Of a DNA stretch of 28,719 nucleotides, positions 1 to 28,719 are shown in pieces. Origin of the DNA: a virus. The notes below the pieces were generated by a model. It was not told the origin of the DNA, searched no databases, and was given only the letters and a program-made list of their open reading frames with translations. Every line of letters starts with the position of its first letter. The stretch's first letter is position 1. The stretch lies in IMG/VR virus record IMGVR_UViG_3300045988_150762, positions 1 to 28,719 of that record, one strand, 5' to 3'. The position numbers and the translations under genes are program-made.

Positions 1-55
1 TGCCACAGAAAAAAGTTCTGCCTATGCCACAGAAAAAAGTTCTGCCTATGCCACA
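1..55. repeat. Terminal overlap identical to 28665..28719 (circular-assembly signature)
   Basis: Exact 55-nt identity read directly: t + 2 x GCCACAGAAAAAAGTTCTGCCTAT + GCCACA at both ends. Confidence 0.95.
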
Positions 56-20967: not shown

Positions 20968-21162
20968 ATGAAGAAAGATGAGAAAAAAACATGGGGGGGC
21001 GCAAGACAAGGCGCAGGACGCAAGAAGAAAGATAACAAAGTGTTGCAGGTGTATATGAGCGAAACAGACATGTTAAGGCTAAAAGCACTTTCTAAAGCGC
21101 ACAAAATGCCAGTAGGCGAATACATTAGCAACGTTCTTCTGCCTTTAGTGGAAGAAAATTAA
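20968..21162 (+). CDS. Small DNA-binding protein, ribbon-helix-helix-like (regulator or directionality-factor candidate)
   Basis: N-terminal WGGARQGAGRKKK motif followed by a short strand-helix-helix-like region. 64 aa, directly upstream of the att-like region and int. Confidence 0.45.
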   Translation: MKKDEKKTWGGARQGAGRKKKDNKVLQVYMSETDMLRLKALSKAHKMPVGEYISNVLLPLVEEN

Positions 21163-21184
21163 ACGATAGTTTTATTATCTGTAG

Positions 21185-21226: not shown

Positions 21227-21636
21227 ACGTTTAAGTAAAAAAGGTGTAAAGATTTAGGGTTCTGTTTTTCCTTTGGTTTTGTGACGTGTACATTACAATA
21301 ACGTACTCGGAACGTGTTTTCTTTCGTTGCGTCAATTTTTTACACTGAATTTACACCCTGCAAAGGGTAAATTATTATCTAACTTGCTACTTTTCAATAG
21401 GTTACACAACGCTTTTTCTGGGGTTGTTTTTCCGCTTCGAGTACCCCAAAAGGTAAATTTTGAGGGTGCAAAGCAAAGAAAATCAGCAAGTTAGGGAGGT
21501 AGGGAAATTTTTCAATTTTTCGGGATTTTTCGGATTTTTACCCCTTTTTTCGGGGTTTTACCCCCTTTTTACCCTGTAAAAATGAATATTTTGAAGTATA
21601 TTTGCCATTGGCTAACAATTTTAAAATATTAAGACG
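21227..21636. repeat. Non-coding att-like region with multiple TTTACCC / TTTACAC motif copies (candidate attP arm sites)
   Basis: 410 nt without an ORF next to int. TTTTACCCC occurs twice, TTTTACCCTG once and TTTACACCCTG once, and inverted copies occur as AGGGTAAATT, AAGGTAAATT and GGTGTAAAG. TTTTCGGGA/TTTTCGGA direct repeats are also present. Confidence 0.5.
21597..21604 (+). promoter_or_regulatory. Candidate -7 box (TATATTTG) for int
   Basis: TAnnTTTG match 33 nt upstream of ATG 21637. No good -33 element. Confidence 0.35.
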
Positions 21637-22839
21637 ATGAAAAAAGAAAGAAAATTTGCATCGGAGGGGCTAATGGGCGGAGACGCAACAGACAACCCCA
21701 AATTAATGTACAGGGCATTAGAGAACGGAAAATTAAGCCTTTTTCTCGTTTATTACTATGGGTACAAAAAAGTAAAAGACGAAAAGACGGGGGCGGAGAA
21801 GATAAAGCACTTCCGAAAAAAAGAGACACTGAAATTATATGTTTTCGCTGACCCTATCAATACGGAGGAAAGACAATATAATAAAAAAGTTCTCATGCTT
21901 GCTAAAAAAATACGGTTTGAGCGAGAACAGGAACTGCTTGAAAATCGGGAGGGCTACAGATTGCAAAGTGACTTCAAAATAAATTTTTTCGATTATTTTC
22001 AGCACTATGTGGACGAGTGGAGAACGGAGAAGTCTCCGCGGCCGTTGAGGCTTGCGTTGAAGCTGTTCAGAGAATTTATCGGCGGTTCTGTCAGATACTG
22101 CCAATTTGAGGGCAATCTTGAACCTAACCAGATTACCCCCGAAATGATTAGGGATTTTACGAGGTTCTTGCAAGATAACTGTATAGGGACGGGGGCGGCT
22201 ACACACTACAAACGTTTTCGGAAAGTCATAAACTATGCCGTGGATAACGGTGTTATAAAGAAAAATCCATGCGAAAAGATTACAGTAAGAGAGGGACAGC
22301 AGAAAATGAAAGACTTTTTGTCGGCTGATGAGGTGCGGACGTTAGCGAAAACACATTATTTGGGTGAGAACCCTGTTATAAGGAGGGCGTTTTTGTTTTC
22401 CTGCCTTACGGGGTTAAGGTGGTGCGATGTCTGCGCCCTGACGTATGACAATATAGACTACGCTAACAACGTTTTTAGGTTTGTACAGATGAAAACGGAC
22501 AAAGAAATGACCATGCCATTGAATGACACGCTTCTGGGGTTAATAGAAGAACCACACACAGCACAACCCAGCAAGGAGAAAGTTTTCCCCCTGCCAAGCT
22601 TCACAATGTGCCTGAAAGCGTTGAGGCATTGGACGGCAAAGGCACGTATACACAAGCATATAACGTGGCACTGTGCCAGGCACTCGTTTGCTACACAATT
22701 AATATCTAATGGCGTTCATGAGCTTACTGCAGCCAGACTGTTAGGACATAGCAGCCTTAAATATATAGGGGTATACGCGCGAATGCTTGACGAGGACAAG
22801 CGCAAGGCACTGAACACCCTGCCCACGTTAGAACTATAA
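21637..22839 (+). CDS. int: Tyrosine recombinase / phage integrase (Bacteroidetes type)
   Basis: LTGLRWCDV (Arg), HCARHSFAT (H-x-x-R-H), LLGHSSL, and YIGVYARM (catalytic Tyr region). N-terminal LFLVYYYGY arm-binding-like segment. Confidence 0.95.
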   Translation: MKKERKFASEGLMGGDATDNPKLMYRALENGKLSLFLVYYYGYKKVKDEKTGAEKIKHFRKKETLKLYVFADPINTEERQYNKKVLMLAKKIRFEREQELLENREGYRLQSDFKINFFDYFQHYVDEWRTEKSPRPLRLALKLFREFIGGSVRYCQFEGNLEPNQITPEMIRDFTRFLQDNCIGTGAATHYKRFRKVINYAVDNGVIKKNPCEKITVREGQQKMKDFLSADEVRTLAKTHYLGENPVIRRAFLFSCLTGLRWCDVCALTYDNIDYANNVFRFVQMKTDKEMTMPLNDTLLGLIEEPHTAQPSKEKVFPLPSFTMCLKALRHWTAKARIHKHITWHCARHSFATQLISNGVHELTAARLLGHSSLKYIGVYARMLDEDKRKALNTLPTLEL

Positions 22840-23413: not shown

Positions 23414-23791
23414 TTATTTCCCTTTGAGTAGTGCTATAATTTCGTCTTTGTCCCTTAAACGTTCTTCTAACGTTCTGATTAGTTTTTCTTTATCGTCGAG
23501 CGCTTCTTTAAGGCGTGCAACTTCTGCCGCCAGCACTGTACTTTCTCCACGCTGCACTGTGCTTTTTATGTTGTTGCTATTTCCGTTTGCGATATTCCCG
23601 CTATTCTGGGTAATGTTTACAGGCGAGGGGGCGCCCATTAGCTCGCCTAATATTAGGCTTTTTGATTGCGGAATATTCTTTCCGTACTCCCAGTTTTGTA
23701 TGGTTTTAGGGTCTACACCTATCATTTCCGCAAGCTGTTTTTGCGTTAAGCCCAATTTTTTTCTAATATTTTTAATATCTAAAGCATTCAT
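23414..23791 (-). CDS. XRE-family HTH repressor (CI-like) with C-terminal coiled coil
   Basis: IKNIRKKLGLTQKQLAEMIGVDPKTIQNWEYGKNIP is a textbook HTH_3 motif. The gene is divergent from the early operon. Confidence 0.85.
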   Translation of the reverse strand: MNALDIKNIRKKLGLTQKQLAEMIGVDPKTIQNWEYGKNIPQSKSLILGELMGAPSPVNITQNSGNIANGNSNNIKSTVQRGESTVLAAEVARLKEALDDKEKLIRTLEERLRDKDEIIALLKGK

Positions 23792-23823: not shown

Positions 23824-23943
23824 ACGGAATATTTCCACGTAATTTCTATTGTCAAACACGGAAAATTCCGTACTTTTGCATTGTAATTTAAAAACAAAAG
23901 CAAATACAAATACAAAAGTAACAATTTTAAAATAAATAACAAA
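23824..23943. promoter_or_regulatory. Immunity switch: operator-like dyads plus two opposed consensus promoters
   Basis: O1 is ACGGAAtatTTCCaCGT (23824-40) and O2 is ACGGAAaaTTCCGT (23858-71). The + promoter is ATTG (23848-51)-19nt-TACTTTTG (23871-78). The - promoter is TTTG (complement of 23940-43)-19nt-TACTTTTG (complement of 23913-20). Confidence 0.55.
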
Positions 23944-23946
23944 ACA

Positions 23947-24330
23947 ATGAAAACGGAAATTGTATTTTTTGAATTAAACCGACATAAGAGAGCAATTCGC
24001 CAGTACGCAGAAGTTATAGCCGCCCTTGCTCCACGCTCATCACACGCATACGTGATGGCAATTGACAAAAACAACGAACCTTTATGGGTGGTACAAGCTG
24101 GTGACCAACATGCGGCGATGGCAATCAGCTGGAAAGGCGTTCGCATGGTTGTGGCCCAATCGCTCGACAAAGAACACGTGTATATACGGGTATATCTTGC
24201 CTCACAAAAACAAATGGCCGAATACATGCGCGAATGCGTGAAAGCAAGAAGAAACGGAGCTGAATTCATCATTGCAGAGAATAACACGCAGAATAACACA
24301 CAATATCACGTATCAGACGGAAAAATATAG
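23947..24330 (+). CDS. Hypothetical first early protein (127 aa)
   Basis: First ORF of the rightward early operon. No HTH recognised. Confidence 0.55.
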   Translation: MKTEIVFFELNRHKRAIRQYAEVIAALAPRSSHAYVMAIDKNNEPLWVVQAGDQHAAMAISWKGVRMVVAQSLDKEHVYIRVYLASQKQMAEYMRECVKARRNGAEFIIAENNTQNNTQYHVSDGKI

Positions 24331-24353
24331 AAACAGACATAAACAACAAAACA

Positions 24354-24485
24354 ATGAAAAACAAAGTCTATTCATTTTACAGCTTGAAAAATAGAACGTT
24401 CATTCAAGTAATCGCAAAAAACAAAAAGCACGTGAAATTATATGCAAAAAAACACTTAATGAAAATCTACAATTATATGAAATAA
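24354..24485 (+). CDS. Possible 43-aa basic small ORF
   Basis: ATG 24354 to TAA 24483-85 (MKNKVYSFYSLKNRTFIQVIAKNKKH...), filling an otherwise empty gap. Confidence 0.3.
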   Translation: MKNKVYSFYSLKNRTFIQVIAKNKKHVKLYAKKHLMKIYNYMK

Positions 24486-24580
24486 CTATACTGCGCACTG
24501 CTAACAGTCAACAACAGAGCATCGAAAAGACCTATCCAGAAATATTCTAATGTAATATAAAAACAGACAAAGGCAAAACA

Positions 24581-24910
24581 ATGACAGCTATAAAACTGAC
24601 ACAAGCAGATATTGACGCTATAGCCAACGCCGTTGCAAAGAGGGTGTTTAGCGCAAAATTGGCGGAGGAAAAAGAATTCCTCACCCCCGCCGAGGCTGCC
24701 CAATTTTTGCAGAGGCCGTTAAGCGCTATCTACAAAATGACGAGTGCAAAGATTTTGCCGTACTATAAGGCGGGAGGGTTACGTTTCAGGCGGACAGAGT
24801 TAGAGAACTGGGCACGTAGTCGTAGAGTAATGACCAATAAAGAGTTAGACAGGCAGACGGACACGGAAGCGGCTTTGTATTGTATGAACAAGAAAAATAA
24901 AAGGGTTTAG
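24581..24910 (+). CDS. Excisionase-family / MerR-like HTH DNA-binding protein (Xis/AlpA-like)
   Basis: FLTPAEAAQFLQRPLSAIYKMTSAKILPYYKAGGLRFRRTELENW fits the HTH_17 pattern. Confidence 0.75.
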   Translation: MTAIKLTQADIDAIANAVAKRVFSAKLAEEKEFLTPAEAAQFLQRPLSAIYKMTSAKILPYYKAGGLRFRRTELENWARSRRVMTNKELDRQTDTEAALYCMNKKNKRV

Positions 24911-24917
24911 GACCCTG

Positions 24918-24962
24918 GGCGGCGCGTCTGCACCGAATAGTCATTCGTGCCGCCTTTTTTTT
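24918..24962 (+). terminator. Terminator-like hairpin, repeat unit 1
   Basis: GGCGGCG...(CGAAT agtc ATTCG)...TGCCGCC followed by 8 T. Confidence 0.5.
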
Positions 24963-25024
24963 AGAAAACATTAAAGTCTAACAAATAAAAAAAAGAAGAA
25001 AAATATCGAAGGTTTAGGACCCTG

Positions 25025-25068
25025 GGCGGCGCGTCTGCACCGAATAGTCATTCGTGCCGCCATTTTTT
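25025..25068 (+). terminator. Terminator-like hairpin, repeat unit 2
   Basis: Same hairpin as unit 1, followed by A plus 6 T. Confidence 0.5.
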
Positions 25069-25130
25069 AGAAAACATTAAAGTCTAACAAATAAAAAAAA
25101 GAAGAAAAATATCGAAGGTTTAGGACCCTG

Positions 25131-25174
25131 GGCGGCGCGTCTGCACCGAATAGTCATTCGTGCCGCCATTTTTT
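25131..25174 (+). terminator. Terminator-like hairpin, repeat unit 3
   Basis: Same hairpin as unit 1, followed by A plus 6 T. Confidence 0.5.
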
Positions 25175-25289
25175 AGAAAACATTAAAGTTTAACAAATAA
25201 AAATTACAAGAAAAATGATTAAAAAAGCAGACGCATTTGTATGTATTAATACAGTTATAATAATGCAATTTGCCTGTCTGTATGCAATT

Positions 25290-25321
25290 TGAACAAGAAA
25301 CAAAAAAGTAAACACTATGAA
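25290..25321 (+). repeat. Direct repeat copy 1 flanking the hexapeptide-repeat gene
   Basis: TGAACAAGAAACAAAAAAGTAAACACTATGAA, matching 26006-26041 apart from a 5-nt indel. Confidence 0.85.
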
Positions 25322-26024
25322 AAAGTATAAACTAACAGATGAAACAATGCTATTTCGTGGCAGAACTCTGCATCGTATTGTTGCACTCCGTGATTTTAAC
25401 GACGTTAAAAAAGGTGACAAGGGCGGTTGGATAGAAAAAGAGGAAAATCTATCGCAGGAGGGTGAATGTTGGGTCTTTGACAATGCGCAAGTCTATGACA
25501 ATGCGCAAATCTTTGGCAATGCGCGGGTCTTTTACAGCGCAAAAGTCTTTGACAATGCGCAAGTCTATGGCAGCGCGCAAGTCTATGACAATGCGCAAAT
25601 CTTTGGCAATGCGCGGGTCTTTTACAGCGCAAAAGTCTTTGACAATGCGCAAGTCTATGGCAGCGCGCAAGTCTATGACAATGCGCAAATCTTTGGCAAT
25701 GCGCGGGTCTTTTACAGCGCAAAAGTCTTTGACAATGCGCAAATCTTTGGCAATGCGCGGGTCTTTGGCAATGCAATAGCCGGTGGTGATGCAGAAATAT
25801 CTAATAAAGCAGACTACATCGTTTTCAAAAATTGGTGGTCATCTGGAAGGTACTTTACGTGGACTCGAAGCAACAATATGTGGTCAGTTGGTTGCTTTTA
25901 TGGCACTGGAGATGAGCTAATAAAAAAGGCTTATGAAGACAGCGAGGACAAAGGTAAACATTACGAGGAGATTGTGGAGTATGTTAATAAGTGTGTTCTG
26001 AAAAATGAACAAGAAACAAAGTAA
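25317..26024 (+). CDS. Hexapeptide-repeat (left-handed beta-helix-like) protein with conserved N- and C-terminal domains, function unknown
   Basis: ~19 consecutive hexads (VFDNAQ, VYDNAQ, IFGNAR, VFYSAK, VYGSAQ...). The N-terminus is LHRIVALRDFNDVKKGDKGGWIEKEENLSQEG and the C-terminus is WSVGCFYGTGDELIKKAYE. Confidence 0.8.
   Translation: MKKYKLTDETMLFRGRTLHRIVALRDFNDVKKGDKGGWIEKEENLSQEGECWVFDNAQVYDNAQIFGNARVFYSAKVFDNAQVYGSAQVYDNAQIFGNARVFYSAKVFDNAQVYGSAQVYDNAQIFGNARVFYSAKVFDNAQIFGNARVFGNAIAGGDAEISNKADYIVFKNWWSSGRYFTWTRSNNMWSVGCFYGTGDELIKKAYEDSEDKGKHYEEIVEYVNKCVLKNEQETK
25473..25775 (+). repeat. Perfect 90-bp tandem repeats (about 2.8 copies) on an 18-bp sub-period, inside the CDS
   Basis: GTCTATGACAATGCGCAAATC recurs at 25491, 25581 and 25671, with the intervening sequence identical. 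Confidence 0.95.
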
Positions 26025-26041
26025 AAAGTAAACACTATGAA
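26006..26041 (+). repeat. Direct repeat copy 2 flanking the hexapeptide-repeat gene
   Basis: TGAACAAGAAACAAAGTAAAAAGTAAACACTATGAA. It covers the end of the upstream CDS and the start codon of the next gene. Confidence 0.85.
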
Positions 26042-26258
26042 GAATTTTGCAACTACGAGACAGGAGAACGAAACATTTATTAAGTTGAGCGTATTGTTAA
26101 TACCCTCTTTTGTGTTGGTGTGTGCTGACAGTATAACAGCATGGGTAGCGGCTATTATTTGGGGCGCTGCGGCCTACAAAATAGCCAGAAAGTGGAACAG
26201 CAAGGCCGCCAGACGTTTGGCGCGTCTGCGTAGCGTTAGACGGTTGTTAGAAGATTAG
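26037..26258 (+). CDS. Small membrane protein (73 aa) with Arg-rich tail
   Basis: Hydrophobic LSVLLIPSFVLVCADSITAWVAAIIWGAAAY followed by KWNSKAARRLARLRSVRRLL. Confidence 0.6.
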   Translation: MKNFATTRQENETFIKLSVLLIPSFVLVCADSITAWVAAIIWGAAAYKIARKWNSKAARRLARLRSVRRLLED

Positions 26259-26323
26259 AACATTTTGTTTGTTGTTAATATATTATTTTAAGATTGTTAA
26301 GCTGGTGTCGTGATGACACCTGA

Positions 26324-26421
26324 TGCGGCGAGCATTCGCAGTGGCGAACGGGCTACATTCATTAAGGTTAAATTTTTTCATCGTTAAACTTTTTTTTGGG
26401 GTTCGAGTCCCCACGTCGCAC
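26324..26421 (+). ncRNA. tRNA-like element (acceptor stem plus T-arm, no canonical anticodon arm)
   Basis: The 7-bp acceptor pairing is TGCGGCG (26324-30) / CGTCGCA (26414-20). The T-arm is TGGGG-TTCGAGT-CCCCA (26397-26413). A D-like hairpin TTCG-CAGTGG-CGAA is present. The middle ~45 nt is A/T-rich with a GTTAAAyTTTTTT direct repeat. Confidence 0.45.
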
Positions 26422-26435
26422 TAAAGGTTAAAGAC

Positions 26436-27296
26436 ATGGCAGAATATAAGCAGCTGAATATCTTCGGAGAGCTTGAAGATATTGACATGGAGAAAAAAGG
26501 CAAGAGGGCAAAGACCTTTGAGGATTACGAGGGCTTTGTTAAGAAGTTCGAGGTGAAAAAGACCACGGACGATTGCTATACCCCGCCAACGCTTTACGAA
26601 ATAGTAAAAGATTGGACGGTGAAGCGGTTCGGGCAGAATGGGGCAAAAATAATTCGCCCCTTTAAGCCTGGGGGCGAATTCATAAACGAGGACTACAGCG
26701 GGGACTGTGTTGTAATTGACAATCCGCCTTTCTCCATACTTAAAAAAATATGTGATTTTTATAACGCACGCGGTATTAGGTTCTTTTTGTTCTGTCCTGG
26801 GTTGACATCTATATACAAGGGTTGTACTTATGTGGCGGTTAATGCTAAAATTACTTACGAGAACGGGGCAAATGTAAACACGTGCTTTGTAACTAATCTT
26901 GCAGGCGACCTCATTGCCATGACGGCGCCAGATTTGAGCAAGTCTTTGAATGTCGAAAACAAACGCTTGATGAAGCAGGGCAAGAAAGATGTTTCTAAAC
27001 TTGCATTTCCGCCTCAAGTGCTGCGTGCTTTTGATTTGCAGAGGCTTGCAAAGTGTGGGGTACATTATGAGGTGAGAGCATCGGAGGGGGCTGTACGTTC
27101 TAAGGTATGCGATTATGACGCTTTTGGGAGCTCTGTTCTGTTGAGCGATGAGGCTACAGTAAAACGTATTAAGGCGGAGGAAGATGCAACACGGGCGGAA
27201 TTCGAGGAGATACGCGCAGAAAAAACGATGTTGCAGCTATCGCAGACAGATATGAATATTATTAACTCATTAAATAAAAATACGAAACATGATTGA
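26436..27296 (+). CDS. Putative N6-adenine DNA methyltransferase (phage Dam-like, orphan)
   Basis: VVIDNPPFS (motif IV D/N-PP-F/Y) preceded by TTDDCYTPPTLYE. No restriction partner is present in the genome. Confidence 0.55.
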   Translation: MAEYKQLNIFGELEDIDMEKKGKRAKTFEDYEGFVKKFEVKKTTDDCYTPPTLYEIVKDWTVKRFGQNGAKIIRPFKPGGEFINEDYSGDCVVIDNPPFSILKKICDFYNARGIRFFLFCPGLTSIYKGCTYVAVNAKITYENGANVNTCFVTNLAGDLIAMTAPDLSKSLNVENKRLMKQGKKDVSKLAFPPQVLRAFDLQRLAKCGVHYEVRASEGAVRSKVCDYDAFGSSVLLSDEATVKRIKAEEDATRAEFEEIRAEKTMLQLSQTDMNIINSLNKNTKHD

Positions 27297-27534
27297 AACT
27301 GCAAAAACAAGACTTGAGACAAGGATGCTAAAAGAAGTACGGGGCAAACTTGAAGATGCAAAGAAACTGTTATCTATCTTGTACGATAACGCATGTGAGG
27401 TTGGCGATGTCTTAAACGAAAATAAGACTCTACCCCAAGAAGCAAAAGACAAACAAATGGCGCTTGTAGATTTATATACGACGGCAAGAGAAGCTGTAGA
27501 AGAGGCCGTCGGCTATGTAGATGATATACTCTAA
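27289..27534 (+). CDS. Hypothetical protein (81 aa)
   Basis: ORF overlapping the upstream stop. Helical, acidic. Confidence 0.5.
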   Translation: MIETAKTRLETRMLKEVRGKLEDAKKLLSILYDNACEVGDVLNENKTLPQEAKDKQMALVDLYTTAREAVEEAVGYVDDIL

Positions 27535-27551
27535 TTGTAAAAAATTAAGGC

Positions 27552-27776
27552 ATGACGGCAAAGGAAAGAAAAAAACTTATAGCGGAGCGTAACGAAAAAA
27601 TTATAAAACGATACGCAGAGCTAAAAAAGCAGGGGGCGGGCATTACAGAGGCGTGCAACAGTATAAAAGCCCTTTATGGCTTGGGCAGTGCTGACGCCGT
27701 GCGGGTGATACTTGTTAAGGCGGGCGCCCATACACCACGCAAATATGTAACAATTGAAAAGCAGATAACTTTATAA
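27552..27776 (+). CDS. Hypothetical protein (74 aa), possible small HTH
   Basis: ORF; the GAGITEACNSIKALYGLGSADAVRVIL segment looks helix-turn-helix-like. Confidence 0.45.
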   Translation: MTAKERKKLIAERNEKIIKRYAELKKQGAGITEACNSIKALYGLGSADAVRVILVKAGAHTPRKYVTIEKQITL

Positions 27777-27788
27777 CAATCTAACAAA

Positions 27789-28013
27789 ATGAAGAATATT
27801 TTTAAAAAGATTGCAGAGGCCTGTAGGCACGCACAGCAAAAGGAACTACAAACGAAAGCTATAGACCGCATTAGAATAGAGTTCTGGGAGGGCGAAATGG
27901 TTTTAGCCATTGATGGCATAATAGTTCGCGGCATACGCGCATCAGACGTTAATGGCTGGGTCAAGGCGTTGGAGGACACAAGACGGCTATACATCGAAAC
28001 GCGCACGAAATGA
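27789..28013 (+). CDS. Hypothetical protein (74 aa)
   Basis: ORF with ATGA overlap to the next gene. Confidence 0.5.
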   Translation: MKNIFKKIAEACRHAQQKELQTKAIDRIRIEFWEGEMVLAIDGIIVRGIRASDVNGWVKALEDTRRLYIETRTK

Positions 28014-28372
28014 AGCAGGAAGAGCACAACATTCAAGTGGCTTGCGTTCGTTGGTTTAGAATACAATACTCTGCCCTCTCTGCACTTCTGTTTGCCGTGC
28101 CAAACGGTGGCAGACGTGACAGGGTGACGGGGGCAAAGCTCAAAGCCGAGGGCGCATTGGCGGGAGTGGCGGACATGCTTCTTCTTTGTCCGTCCTCACG
28201 CTACCACGGTTTGTGCATAGAATTTAAAACGCAGACAGGCAGACAAAGCGAGGCGCAGAAAACTTTTCAGCGCAAAGTAGAGGGTGCGGGGTATGCCTAT
28301 TGTGTAGTGCGTTCTATAGGTGATTTTATAAATGTCGTTGCGGCTTATTTCCGTGGGGAGGCTATCGGCTGA
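28010..28372 (+). CDS. VRR-NUC domain nuclease
   Basis: EEHNIQVACVRW, VPNGG.R, GVADMLL, IEFKT..G..S..Q pattern (PD-(D/E)xK core). Confidence 0.85.
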   Translation: MKQEEHNIQVACVRWFRIQYSALSALLFAVPNGGRRDRVTGAKLKAEGALAGVADMLLLCPSSRYHGLCIEFKTQTGRQSEAQKTFQRKVEGAGYAYCVVRSIGDFINVVAAYFRGEAIG

Positions 28373-28383
28373 AAGGAGGGCGC

Positions 28384-28719
28384 ATGGTAAGAGATAAATT
28401 CACGTTCTATGCCGACTGGGTAGAGGCGTTGCGCATTCTACCGCCAGAGGATTTCAAGGCCGCTTTTATGGCAATGGCAGAGCTGGCATTATATGATAAA
28501 GCGCCGCAAGATACGTTACAAGGTTTTTCCGCTGTGGTGTACTCTATGGCCGAGCGTCAGCTTGTCAGCAACGCAAAGCGGTATGACGGAGCACAAAAGG
28601 GAGGTGTGTCTAAAGCGCTAAGGCAATGCCACCATGGCAATGGCACAGAAAAAAGTTCTGCCTATGCCACAGAAAAAAGTTCTGCCTATGCCACAGAAAA
28701 AAGTTCTGCCTATGCCACA
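28384..28719 (+). CDS. N-terminal part of junction-spanning replication-associated protein (continues at 2..577)
   Basis: AGGAGG lies 4 nt upstream of ATG 28384. MVRDKFTFYADWVEALRILPPEDFKAAFMAMAELALYD resembles an N-terminal domain I recall from Bacteroidota phage/plasmid replication-module proteins. There is no stop before the window end. Confidence 0.7.
   Translation, partial: MVRDKFTFYADWVEALRILPPEDFKAAFMAMAELALYDKAPQDTLQGFSAVVYSMAERQLVSNAKRYDGAQKGGVSKALRQCHHGNGTEKSSAYATEKSSAYATEKSSAYAT
28642..28719 (+). repeat. 24-bp tandem repeat, 3 units plus 6 nt, coding (G/A)TEKSSAY
   Basis: GGCACAGAAAAAAGTTCTGCCTAT followed by 2 x GCCACAGAAAAAAGTTCTGCCTAT and GCCACA. The last two units are also seen at 2-55. 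Confidence 0.95.

Follow-up and report, generated by a model that had tools for sequence, protein, structure and literature searches.

A candidate tRNA-mimicking leader element in the early operon of a temperate phage

The window analysed here is the whole of IMG/VR virus record IMGVR_UViG_3300045988_150762 (28,719 nucleotides), a temperate phage genome of ~28.7 kb. Our subject is the region 24904-26435 of its rightward lytic operon, and above all a tRNA-like element of 98 nt that lies directly upstream of a gene for a putative N6-adenine DNA methyltransferase (methyltransferase-like gene below; Table 1). A first-pass annotation had described four elements in a row in this region, namely a tandem array of terminator-like hairpins, a hexapeptide-repeat gene, a gene for a membrane peptide and the tRNA-like element, and had put them forward as a candidate for a single RNA-plus-protein module in an accessory position of the early operon. 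All four are present where they had been placed, and the operon does contain an accessory ("moron") slot. Comparison with related phages indicates that the tRNA-like element is a conserved structured RNA, whereas the region as a whole does not behave as one module.

Gene order at the locus

The rightward operon begins at 23947 and passes through the region into replication and packaging genes; the region lies downstream of a divergent cI-like repressor gene, with an integrase gene nearby. Relatives were found through homologues of the 286-aa methyltransferase-like protein, which yielded six genomes at 84-92% identity and a distant one, L012, through a 61%-identical homologue. They share the order Xis-like gene, hairpin, variable gene, gene for a 74-aa peptide, a gap of ~175 nt and methyltransferase-like gene. 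Nothing useful came from a megablast search of 23900-28700 against GenBank phages, from exact 23-mer and 37-mer scans of IMG/VR, or from IMG/VR scans seeded with the methyltransferase-like or the Xis-like protein alone. Scans against family libraries covered ten neighbouring proteins of the window.

Table 1. Features of the window discussed in the text. TRF, Tandem Repeats Finder; HTH, helix-turn-helix.
Feature	Position	Strand	Remarks
24-bp tandem unit TGCCACAGAAAAAAGTTCTGCCTA, left end	1-55		×2.3
Small open reading frame (MKKDEKKTWGGARQGAGRKKKDNKVLQVYMSETDMLRLKALSKAHKMPVGEYISNVLLPLVEEN)	20969-21163	+	Ribbon-helix-helix-like by eye
attP core	21432-21447	+	Identical to 3′ end of host tRNA-Leu(UAA) gene; ~190 nt upstream of integrase gene
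20-bp repeats TTTTTCGGnnTTTTACCCC	21507-21570		Between attP and integrase gene
Tyrosine integrase gene	21637-22839		Bacteroidota-style Arm-DNA-bind_5 and SAM_5 domains
cI-like HTH repressor gene	23414-23791	leftward
Xis-like HTH_17 gene, 109 aa	24581-24910	+	Pfam HTH_17 6e-12; TIGR01764 excisionase-family domain
106/107-bp tandem unit	24890-25216	+	×3.1; TRF, 95% matches
Array hairpin GGGCGGCGCG...CGTGCCGCC, three copies	24917-24954, 25024-25061, 25130-25167	+	Spacing 107 and 106 bp
Direct repeat bracketing YdcK-like gene, left	25283-25324	+	~42 nt; repeat finder
YdcK-family left-handed beta-helix (hexapeptide-like) gene, 235 aa	25317-26024	+	Fills variable accessory slot
90-bp tandem repeat (30 aa, five beta-helix coils)	25485-25774	+	×3.2; TRF, 96% matches, over 18-bp period
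Direct repeat bracketing YdcK-like gene, right	25999-26044	+	~42 nt; repeat finder
Small membrane-protein gene, 73 aa	26037-26258	+	Hydrophobic core, basic C-terminal tail
Bacteroidota-type promoter-like motif TTTG-N17/21-TAAGATTG	26264-26296	+	Pattern scan, consensus match only
P0 hairpin GGTGTC-GTGAT-GACACC	26304-26320	+	Ends 3 nt before acceptor stem
tRNA-like element, 98 nt	26324-26421	+	Ends 14 nt before ATG at 26436
Acceptor stem, 7 bp	26324-26330 with 26414-26420	+
D-like arm	26335-26348 (5-bp hairpin)		Tetraloop AGUG; outer pairs G9-C30 and C10-G29 around the hairpin; A8 precedes
Invariant GGGC	26350-26353	+
Motif UUUUUUCAUCGUUAAAC in the AU-rich variable region	26373-26389	+
T arm UGGGG-UUCGAGU-CCCCA	26397-26413	+	Loop UUCGAGU
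Discriminator C	26421	+	No CCA after
Putative N6-adenine DNA methyltransferase gene, 286 aa	26436-27296	+	tRNA-like element directly upstream
24-bp tandem unit TGCCACAGAAAAAAGTTCTGCCTA, right end	28640-28719		×3.3

Structure and conservation of the tRNA-like element

Every relative, L012 among them, has the element before its methyltransferase-like gene. All three of its helices differ in sequence between L012 and the window, yet stay complementary: the acceptor stem is UGCGGCG/CGUCGCA in the window and AGGGUG/CACCCU in L012, the D-like stem UUCGC/GCGAA and CCCAC/GUGGG, and the T stem GGGG/CCCC and GAGG/CCUC, respectively. Across 12 sequences aligned in structural register, 97.6% of the cells of the acceptor, T-arm and D-like helices pair and 11 of the 18 pairs have changed on both sides. 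When the registers were slid by 1-3 columns as a control, pairing fell to 36-59% with 0-2 pairs changed on both sides, and none of 500 shuffles reached the observed level. RNAalifold found the three helices independently and added the pairs G9-C30 and C10-G29, which close the D-like arm around an invariant GG. Eleven G-U cells are compatible with the + strand only, and L005 carries a compensated insertion of one base pair in the T stem. The T-arm identity positions G53, U54, U55, C56, R57, A58 and C61 (alignment columns GGTTCGA..CC) are invariant in the 12 sequences. Acceptor and T stems form a stack that in most copies measures 12 bp (A type, 7+5; paralogous B type, for which see below, 6+6).

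The middle region, which occupies the place of an anticodon arm, is AU-rich and variable (31-88 nt); its single-sequence folds differ by lineage, and 16-17 nt of it are deleted in L003. Every copy of the element ends 14-28 nt before an ATG, with no CCA and with no terminator in between, and in close relatives the leader that follows varies far more than the paired regions of the element do. The + strand of the window has only ten matches to the promoter-like pattern, among them the motif on the upstream side of the element. A hairpin at the P0 position with a GNRA-like loop is found in three lineages, those of the window, of L012 (GCGTT-GTGA-AACGC) and of an L207-type B element (GCCA-GCGA-TGGC); the B elements of L003, L008 and L009 lack it.

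An open reading frame (ORF) of 33 aa runs over the element (26323-26424, + strand; 4895-4996 in L003, where it figures in the public gene calls). We rejected it as a coding sequence because its indels are not multiples of three and its changes are compensatory. From the pattern of substitution, the element is a conserved structured RNA of the + strand, and its fold is very likely functional.

A paralogue and the spread of the element

The B-type paralogue is located between the post-Xis hairpin and the Bro-N/ANT gene (Bro-N in L003) in L003, L008 and L009, and also upstream of Bro-N/ANT genes in a different phage backbone (L207/L218, L217 and L219). The Bro-N gene of L219 is a different variant that diverges after the first six codons, while the element and its leader are nearly unchanged. 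Judged by these placements, the element behaves as a portable cassette that is set before the start codons of unrelated genes.

A covariance model of the element (R1) finds one copy in the window (60.7 bits, E 6.7e-13). When ~1.9 Mb of retrieved loci were scanned for the structure, the only matches were members of the family and, from GC-rich genomes, a few sequences of tRNA shape. The matches listed in a pattern scan of GTDB genomes were in GC-rich non-Bacteroidota genomes, and a stricter structural scan recovered no family member among them; a long-gap pattern gave nothing useful in IMG/VR. We considered a functional tie of the element to the methyltransferase family and rejected it, since none of 80 IMG/VR loci with homologues of that protein (38-54% identity over the best aligned segment) has the element and since the paralogue precedes Bro-N/ANT genes.

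tRNA genes and tRNA-shaped genes occur near some of the distant methyltransferase-like homologues. In two GC-rich phages tRNA-shaped genes are just upstream of the homologue (L070, ~259-404; L077, ~2794-2929) and are called by ARAGORN in intron mode only, with a 49-nt insertion; ordinary tRNA-Met and tRNA-Trp genes are found near the homologue too, in L082 and L077.

One may ask whether the element is a decaying tRNA pseudogene, or a DNA linker that has no RNA function and serves only as a patch of homology for recombination. Such an origin would suit its position at mosaic boundaries, where the B element and the first codons are common to different backbones and Bro-N variants, as well as its degenerate anticodon arm and the real tRNA genes shortly upstream of the homologous methyltransferase gene in L077 and L082. 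The compensatory changes in three helices, the compensated base-pair insertion and the strand-specific G-U pairs, however, point to selection on an RNA fold, and a leader far more variable than the paired regions of the element in close relatives argues in the same direction. We consider a pseudogene or linker improbable.

Comparison with known RNA classes

In its default mode, ARAGORN calls no tRNA and no transfer-messenger RNA (tmRNA) in the window and no tRNA for the element in the relatives. Rfam returns no match to the tRNA family at E ≤ 10, even with a query of 146 nt, and nothing at its gathering thresholds; the weak matches are that of the T arm to mascRNA (14.4 bits, gathering threshold 42.5) and, among the tmRNA families, one to tmRNA_permuted (8 bits, gathering threshold 47). 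The tRNA-like stretch of the first-pass annotation is nevertheless supported as a genuine structured RNA, one that escapes both resources.

The element retains the acceptor/T minihelix and an elbow-like arrangement of its D-like and T arms. The T arm is canonical, with a 5-bp stem that covaries and the closing pair G53-C61, and so is the 7-bp acceptor stem stacked on it. The canonical D arm (a 4-bp stem and an 8-11-nt loop with G18 G19) and U8 are absent; in their place are A8, a hairpin with an RGNG tetraloop and a GG in an internal loop. There is likewise no anticodon arm with a 5-bp stem, a 7-nt loop and a consistent anticodon: when ARAGORN is relaxed it draws the same boundaries in each member and a different anticodon (Lys, Ala, Thr, Asn or Cys). 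Lacking a call from the tRNA finder or from Rfam, with inconsistent anticodons and a variable middle region, the element was rejected as a genuine decoding tRNA.

With tmRNA it has in common the acceptor stem, the T arm and a reduced D region that presents a GG. It differs in having no tag reading frame, no pseudoknots and no G3-U70 pair to mark alanine identity near the CCA end (its wobble is at 5-68 and is not conserved), and tmRNA was rejected on the grounds that ARAGORN calls none, that the Rfam match is insignificant and that 98 nt is too short. YrlA and other bacterial Y RNAs, tRNA mimics to which Rsr/Ro60 binds, share with the element that they are non-coding, come from bacteria or phages and imitate three parts of a tRNA, the acceptor, D arm and T arm. 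In YrlA, however, the RNA reportedly ends in a Ro-binding stem and the acceptor-like stem is closed, whereas the ends of the element lie in its acceptor stem; it has no Rfam match to that class, Rsr/Ro60 (TROVE) has no match among the ten neighbouring proteins scanned, and there is no rsr homologue among the neighbouring genes examined. Species 1 and species 2 of phage T4 are tRNA-like stable RNAs that are processed along with tRNAs inside a tRNA gene cluster. The element, in contrast, stands immediately upstream of protein start codons.

Two further comparisons concern processing, and of the known systems these two, tRNA punctuation and mascRNA, are the ones that the element would most resemble in its working. 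Transcripts that join mRNA and tRNA, of which the tufB operon and mitochondrial tRNA punctuation are examples, resemble the present case in placing a tRNA fold within a polycistronic transcript; theirs are decoding tRNAs, whereas the element has no consistent anticodon. RNase P processes such co-transcripts, e.g. E. coli secG-leuU, and thereby parts coding from non-coding RNA (PMC2241853). It also processes the tRNA-like mascRNA from MALAT1 (PMC8457004). mascRNA and menRNA, which stem from the 3′ ends of MALAT1 and MEN-beta and are cut by RNase P and RNase Z, are, like the element, tRNA-shaped modules in a longer transcript that lack a functional anticodon and act as a known or proposed processing signal. 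The differences are that mascRNA is eukaryotic and nuclear, is derived from the 3′ end of a long non-coding RNA and measures ~58 nt, while the element belongs to a phage, lies in the 5′ leader of coding genes and measures 80-138 nt, with a distinct D-like arm and an AU-rich insert. Literature searches gave no description of such an element, and Rfam 15 contains none either. We regard it as a credible new structured RNA family, a kind of tRNA mimicry that is absent from the catalogues searched.

A possible role in processing of the downstream mRNA

RNase Z acts on precursors that lack CCA. We tentatively favour a role of the element as a cis-acting signal by which RNase P and RNase Z would process the downstream mRNA, because the features that it has retained are the ones by which RNase P reads a tRNA: the enzyme gauges the T-stem/acceptor stack and grips the molecule at its elbow (PMC4919913). 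Transcription, possibly started at the adjoining promoter-like motif, would run through the element into the downstream gene; RNase P would then cut on the 5′ side of the element and RNase Z after the discriminator. The downstream mRNA would be freed with a short, A-rich and unstructured leader of 14-28 nt, so that expression and stability of the downstream gene would be uncoupled from the upstream transcript and its terminators, and a tRNA-like RNA of ~98 nt would be released as a by-product. The paralogous cassette would serve the Bro-N/ANT genes and move with them between phage backbones. The promoter-like motif and the P0 hairpin fit such processing without proving it.

The same upstream signals bear on the alternative that the element remains uncleaved as a passive structural 5′ leader, which would protect the 5′ end of the mRNA and insulate the A-rich initiation region from pairing with upstream sequence. 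Such insulation would matter in Bacteroidota, since translation initiation proceeds there without a Shine-Dalgarno sequence. The promoter-like motif would put the start of transcription at about the P0 hairpin, and the leaders after the element are A-rich and variable in sequence while the element is conserved, both of which would be in keeping with a passive leader. A generic stabiliser, however, needs neither all of the T-loop identity positions nor a stack of tRNA length, since any stable hairpin would do, and we think this alternative distinctly unlikely.

Somewhat less unlikely, though still not a reading we would expect to hold, is action in trans. The element, freed from the longer transcript or transcribed separately, would then be a small RNA of ~98 nt that mimics tRNA and sequesters, as decoy or sponge, some host factor with affinity for the elbow or the acceptor, its closeness to start codons being incidental; among the candidate targets would be a tRNA-targeting defence nuclease, the CCA-adding enzyme, a modification enzyme and the ribosomal E site. 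As in the mimics tmRNA and YrlA, conservation extends to the T loop, the invariant GG and the acceptor/T stack, and a promoter-like motif is found directly upstream. Furthermore, the downstream gene can stay in place while the element comes or goes (L007 and L010 compared with L008 and L009), and a semi-conserved, single-stranded UUCAUYGUYA in the middle region could be a binding site. Against a separate RNA stands the absence of a terminator or other 3′-end signal between the element and the downstream ORF, together with the fixed short distance to the start codon in all copies, in two paralogue types and before unrelated genes. That the anticodon-arm region is variable and deletable argues against a decoy for an anticodon nuclease in particular.

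Several observations weigh against processing in cis and, in part, against the family as we have drawn it. The stack is 13 bp long in L005 (7+6) and 11 bp in L012 (6+5, with a terminal A-A mismatch), so that a 12-bp ruler can be only approximate. The motif UUCAUYGUYA(AAC), which recurs in the A type, in L012 and in the B type, lies outside the three-helix model and is not explained by a pure processing signal. In L007 and L010 the same ANT gene has no B element before it, and the element is thus dispensable for at least this gene. The covariance model finds no copy at the 80 IMG/VR loci with distant methyltransferase homologues and none in Bacteroides phage Bacuni_F1, and the family is rare: pattern scans of three large collections gave only four more copies. 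Folded by itself, the tRNA-like stretch is no more stable than its shuffles (z = -1.2), and support for the element comes from the comparison with relatives and not from thermodynamics. The covariation, in turn, rests on only three independent lineages (A type, L012 and B type) in an alignment that was fitted to the structure.

On balance, a mosaic region with a tRNA-mimic 5′ leader that is processed by RNase P and RNase Z is the best explanation of the locus as a whole, and we offer it as a tentative one, a little short of what we would expect to prove right.

A mosaic region with a variable accessory slot

The slot between the hairpin and the membrane-peptide gene holds a YdcK-like gene in the window and in L005, a 113-aa Bro-N gene in L003 and a Bro-N/ANT gene of antirepressor type (266-280 aa) in L007, L008, L009, L010 and L012. 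In close relatives these swaps leave the membrane peptide, the tRNA-like element and the methyltransferase-like gene in place. The region is thus very probably a mosaic, composed of a hairpin, a swappable accessory slot, a membrane peptide and a tRNA-like leader.

The reading of the first-pass annotation, that hairpins, beta-helix gene, membrane peptide and tRNA-like RNA constitute one module for anti-defence or host takeover, draws on their adjacency in an accessory position of the early operon, and the membrane peptide, tRNA-like element and methyltransferase-like gene do stay together in close relatives. Nevertheless, Bro-N or ANT genes replace the hexapeptide gene in most relatives, the hairpin has one copy elsewhere, many unrelated phages possess YdcK-like genes, and in a different backbone the tRNA-like paralogue goes with a different gene. 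The comparison of relatives that the annotation had proposed therefore finds the elements independently of one another in unrelated contexts, the first of the findings that the annotation had itself named as refuting; the single module is thereby largely refuted. Nothing that we found points to an anti-defence role, and the libraries searched (PADLOC not among them) gave no match to a known defence-related family. We consider a module of this kind very improbable.

The YdcK-like gene

The hexapeptide-repeat gene of the first-pass annotation is an ORF of 235 aa, and both its 90-bp repeats and the direct repeats that bracket it were recovered. Its product matches Pfam PF18836 B_solenoid_ydck (1.1e-19; 69 bits against a cut-off of 30), PHROG 7964 (9e-93; annotated as of unknown function), NCBIfam YdcK_fam (1.8e-33; 115.8 bits, under the equivalog cut-off of 350) and PDB 2f9c, which is YdcK itself (3.8e-27). 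By these matches it belongs to the YdcK beta-solenoid family at the domain level only and is not the NCBIfam equivalog. Compared with chromosomal YdcK it is shorter (235 versus 326-334 aa), has a C-terminal domain of phage type and contains a newly amplified block of 30 aa. YdcK-like matches were found in 94 GenBank phage records (Streptococcus, Liberibacter, Bacteroides, Bacillus, Vibrio and others), with ~47-55% identity to the Streptococcus phage matches listed and 52.7% to orf229 of Streptococcus thermophilus phage Sfi19, a distribution that marks it as a common and promiscuous phage accessory gene.

The L005 homologue has diverged coils at the place where the window has near-perfect 90-bp repeats, and the amplification in the window is thus recent. 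A second assembly of the genome, ENA scaffold_978, encodes a YdcK-like protein of 205 aa (L001, 361-978) with one 90-bp unit fewer, owing to either repeat collapse or true polymorphism. The 14-mer GAACAAGAAACAAA of the bracketing repeat occurs exactly twice. Its left copy reads ...EQETKK-stop, a leader and ATGAA, like the tail of an earlier similar gene, and its right copy holds the C-terminal codons NEQETK-stop of the YdcK-like gene itself, with the same right junction in L005. The idea that 25213-25316 holds the remains of a former YdcK-like gene was rejected: convincing homology is limited to the terminal ~42 nt, and the alignment score (96, against 63 ± 6 for shuffles) is driven by the repeat.

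The small membrane-protein gene

The membrane peptide, too, had been noted in the first-pass annotation, and it is intact in six relatives, as an ORF of 74 aa beside the tRNA-like element (L003, L005, L007, L008, L009 and L010). Its codon differences are synonymous about as often as nonsynonymous and its amino-acid changes are conservative, which fits a real, moderately constrained small membrane protein. It has no match in Pfam, PHROG, NCBIfam or INPHARED.

The tandem hairpin array

TRF resolves the three ~107-bp units of the first-pass annotation as a 106-bp unit with three copies of the hairpin, each of which has a GC-rich stem of ~10 bp and a partly paired loop of 19 nt, followed by T8 after copy 1 and AT6 after copies 2 and 3. 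One 106-bp unit folds at -29.8 kcal/mol (z = -3.6 against shuffles); a simple terminator scan does not call the hairpin, owing to its long loop. The post-Xis hairpin is single-copy in L003, L007, L008, L009 and L010, all five relatives that cover the site. Its sequence is kept in them, but the U-tract is absent in L003, L008 and L009. Because of this single-copy state, the array is read as a local triplication of the post-Xis hairpin region, which among the genomes compared is particular to this one. The sequence AAGAAAAAT is found at every unit boundary, and it also ends the Xis-like gene; its presence at all boundaries fits an origin by slippage or unequal crossing-over. The Xis-like gene, of which the last ~20 nt belong to the first unit, is found in relatives as well, at the same length of 109 aa.

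Together with the 90-bp amplification, the triplication indicates recent rearrangement, as the first-pass annotation had supposed from the repeats. scaffold_978 is circularly permuted with respect to the window and is broken inside the 106-bp array. Both repeats are real, but since this assembly breaks in one and has a unit fewer in the other, their copy numbers are unreliable, being dependent on assembly or polymorphic.

Arrays of hairpin RNAs are known from UG27-type reverse transcriptases of Bacteroides prophages, in which structurally similar, sequence-diverse non-coding RNAs lie beside the reverse transcriptase and accessory ORFs (bioRxiv 10.64898/2026.09.22.753630). An array of this type is unsupported here: the units are near-identical and in relatives there is a single copy. 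No reverse-transcriptase-like ORF is apparent in the window, of which only ten proteins were scanned against family libraries.

The post-Xis hairpin and the B-type element of L009 are separated by an inserted GC-rich hairpin of ~73 bp that has a T-run (~1165-1250). It is flanked by a 13-bp direct duplication, AAAAAGCTTAGGA, and resembles a small insertion/duplication event.

Attachment site, host and neighbouring genes

The attP core lies beside the integrase gene, and in L007, an integrated relative, the tRNA-Leu(UAA) gene (414-501) is followed by phage sequence. The tRNA-like element was considered as attP and rejected: given this core, it is not the attachment site, and it has a complete acceptor stem and not a 3′ fragment. 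The 20-bp repeats found between attP and the integrase gene probably represent arm-type sites of the integrase, and the long non-coding stretch upstream of attP contains a small ORF (Table 1).

In its large terminase the phage shares 47% identity with Bacteroides uniformis phages F1, F2 and F4. This similarity and the relative integrated at tRNA-Leu(UAA) make a Bacteroidales host likely.

The same 24-bp unit is repeated in tandem at both ends of the window, which shows the contig to be a circular genome opened within this array. The array comprises five or more copies, is non-coding and could represent iterons or a packaging or replication site.

The methyltransferase-like protein matches PHROG 21498 (8.8e-68; annotated as of unknown function) and has the invariant motifs TTDDCYTPP and DNPPFS. 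Its homologues include one annotated as DNA N-6-adenine-methyltransferase and some ParB-domain fusions; there is no sequence match in Pfam, NCBIfam or PDB.

Implications

Apart from the tRNA-like element, the parts of the region are of ordinary kinds. The region documents a hot accessory slot in this phage group, filled by YdcK-like, Bro-N or ANT genes, and it is a reminder that repeat copy numbers in short-read metagenome assemblies are not to be taken at face value. For annotation, tRNA finders and Rfam miss this class of RNA, and gene callers put a spurious 33-aa ORF over it.

It is possible, and we say so with more reserve than for the role of the single element, that temperate phages of Bacteroidota carry previously undescribed, portable leader cassettes that mimic tRNA, hijack host RNase P and RNase Z to excise accessory and early mRNAs from longer transcripts, and move between genes and phage backbones with the genes that they precede. 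Each cassette would retain the tRNA elbow and the acceptor/T minihelix and lack an anticodon arm. If the element is a processing signal, tRNA mimicry would be used for the maturation of phage mRNA, and the cassette would be a compact, transferable part for the control of expression in Bacteroides, where the rules of the 5′ untranslated region are poorly understood. If such cassettes do act in this way, they would be a phage counterpart of mascRNA processing or of mitochondrial tRNA punctuation.

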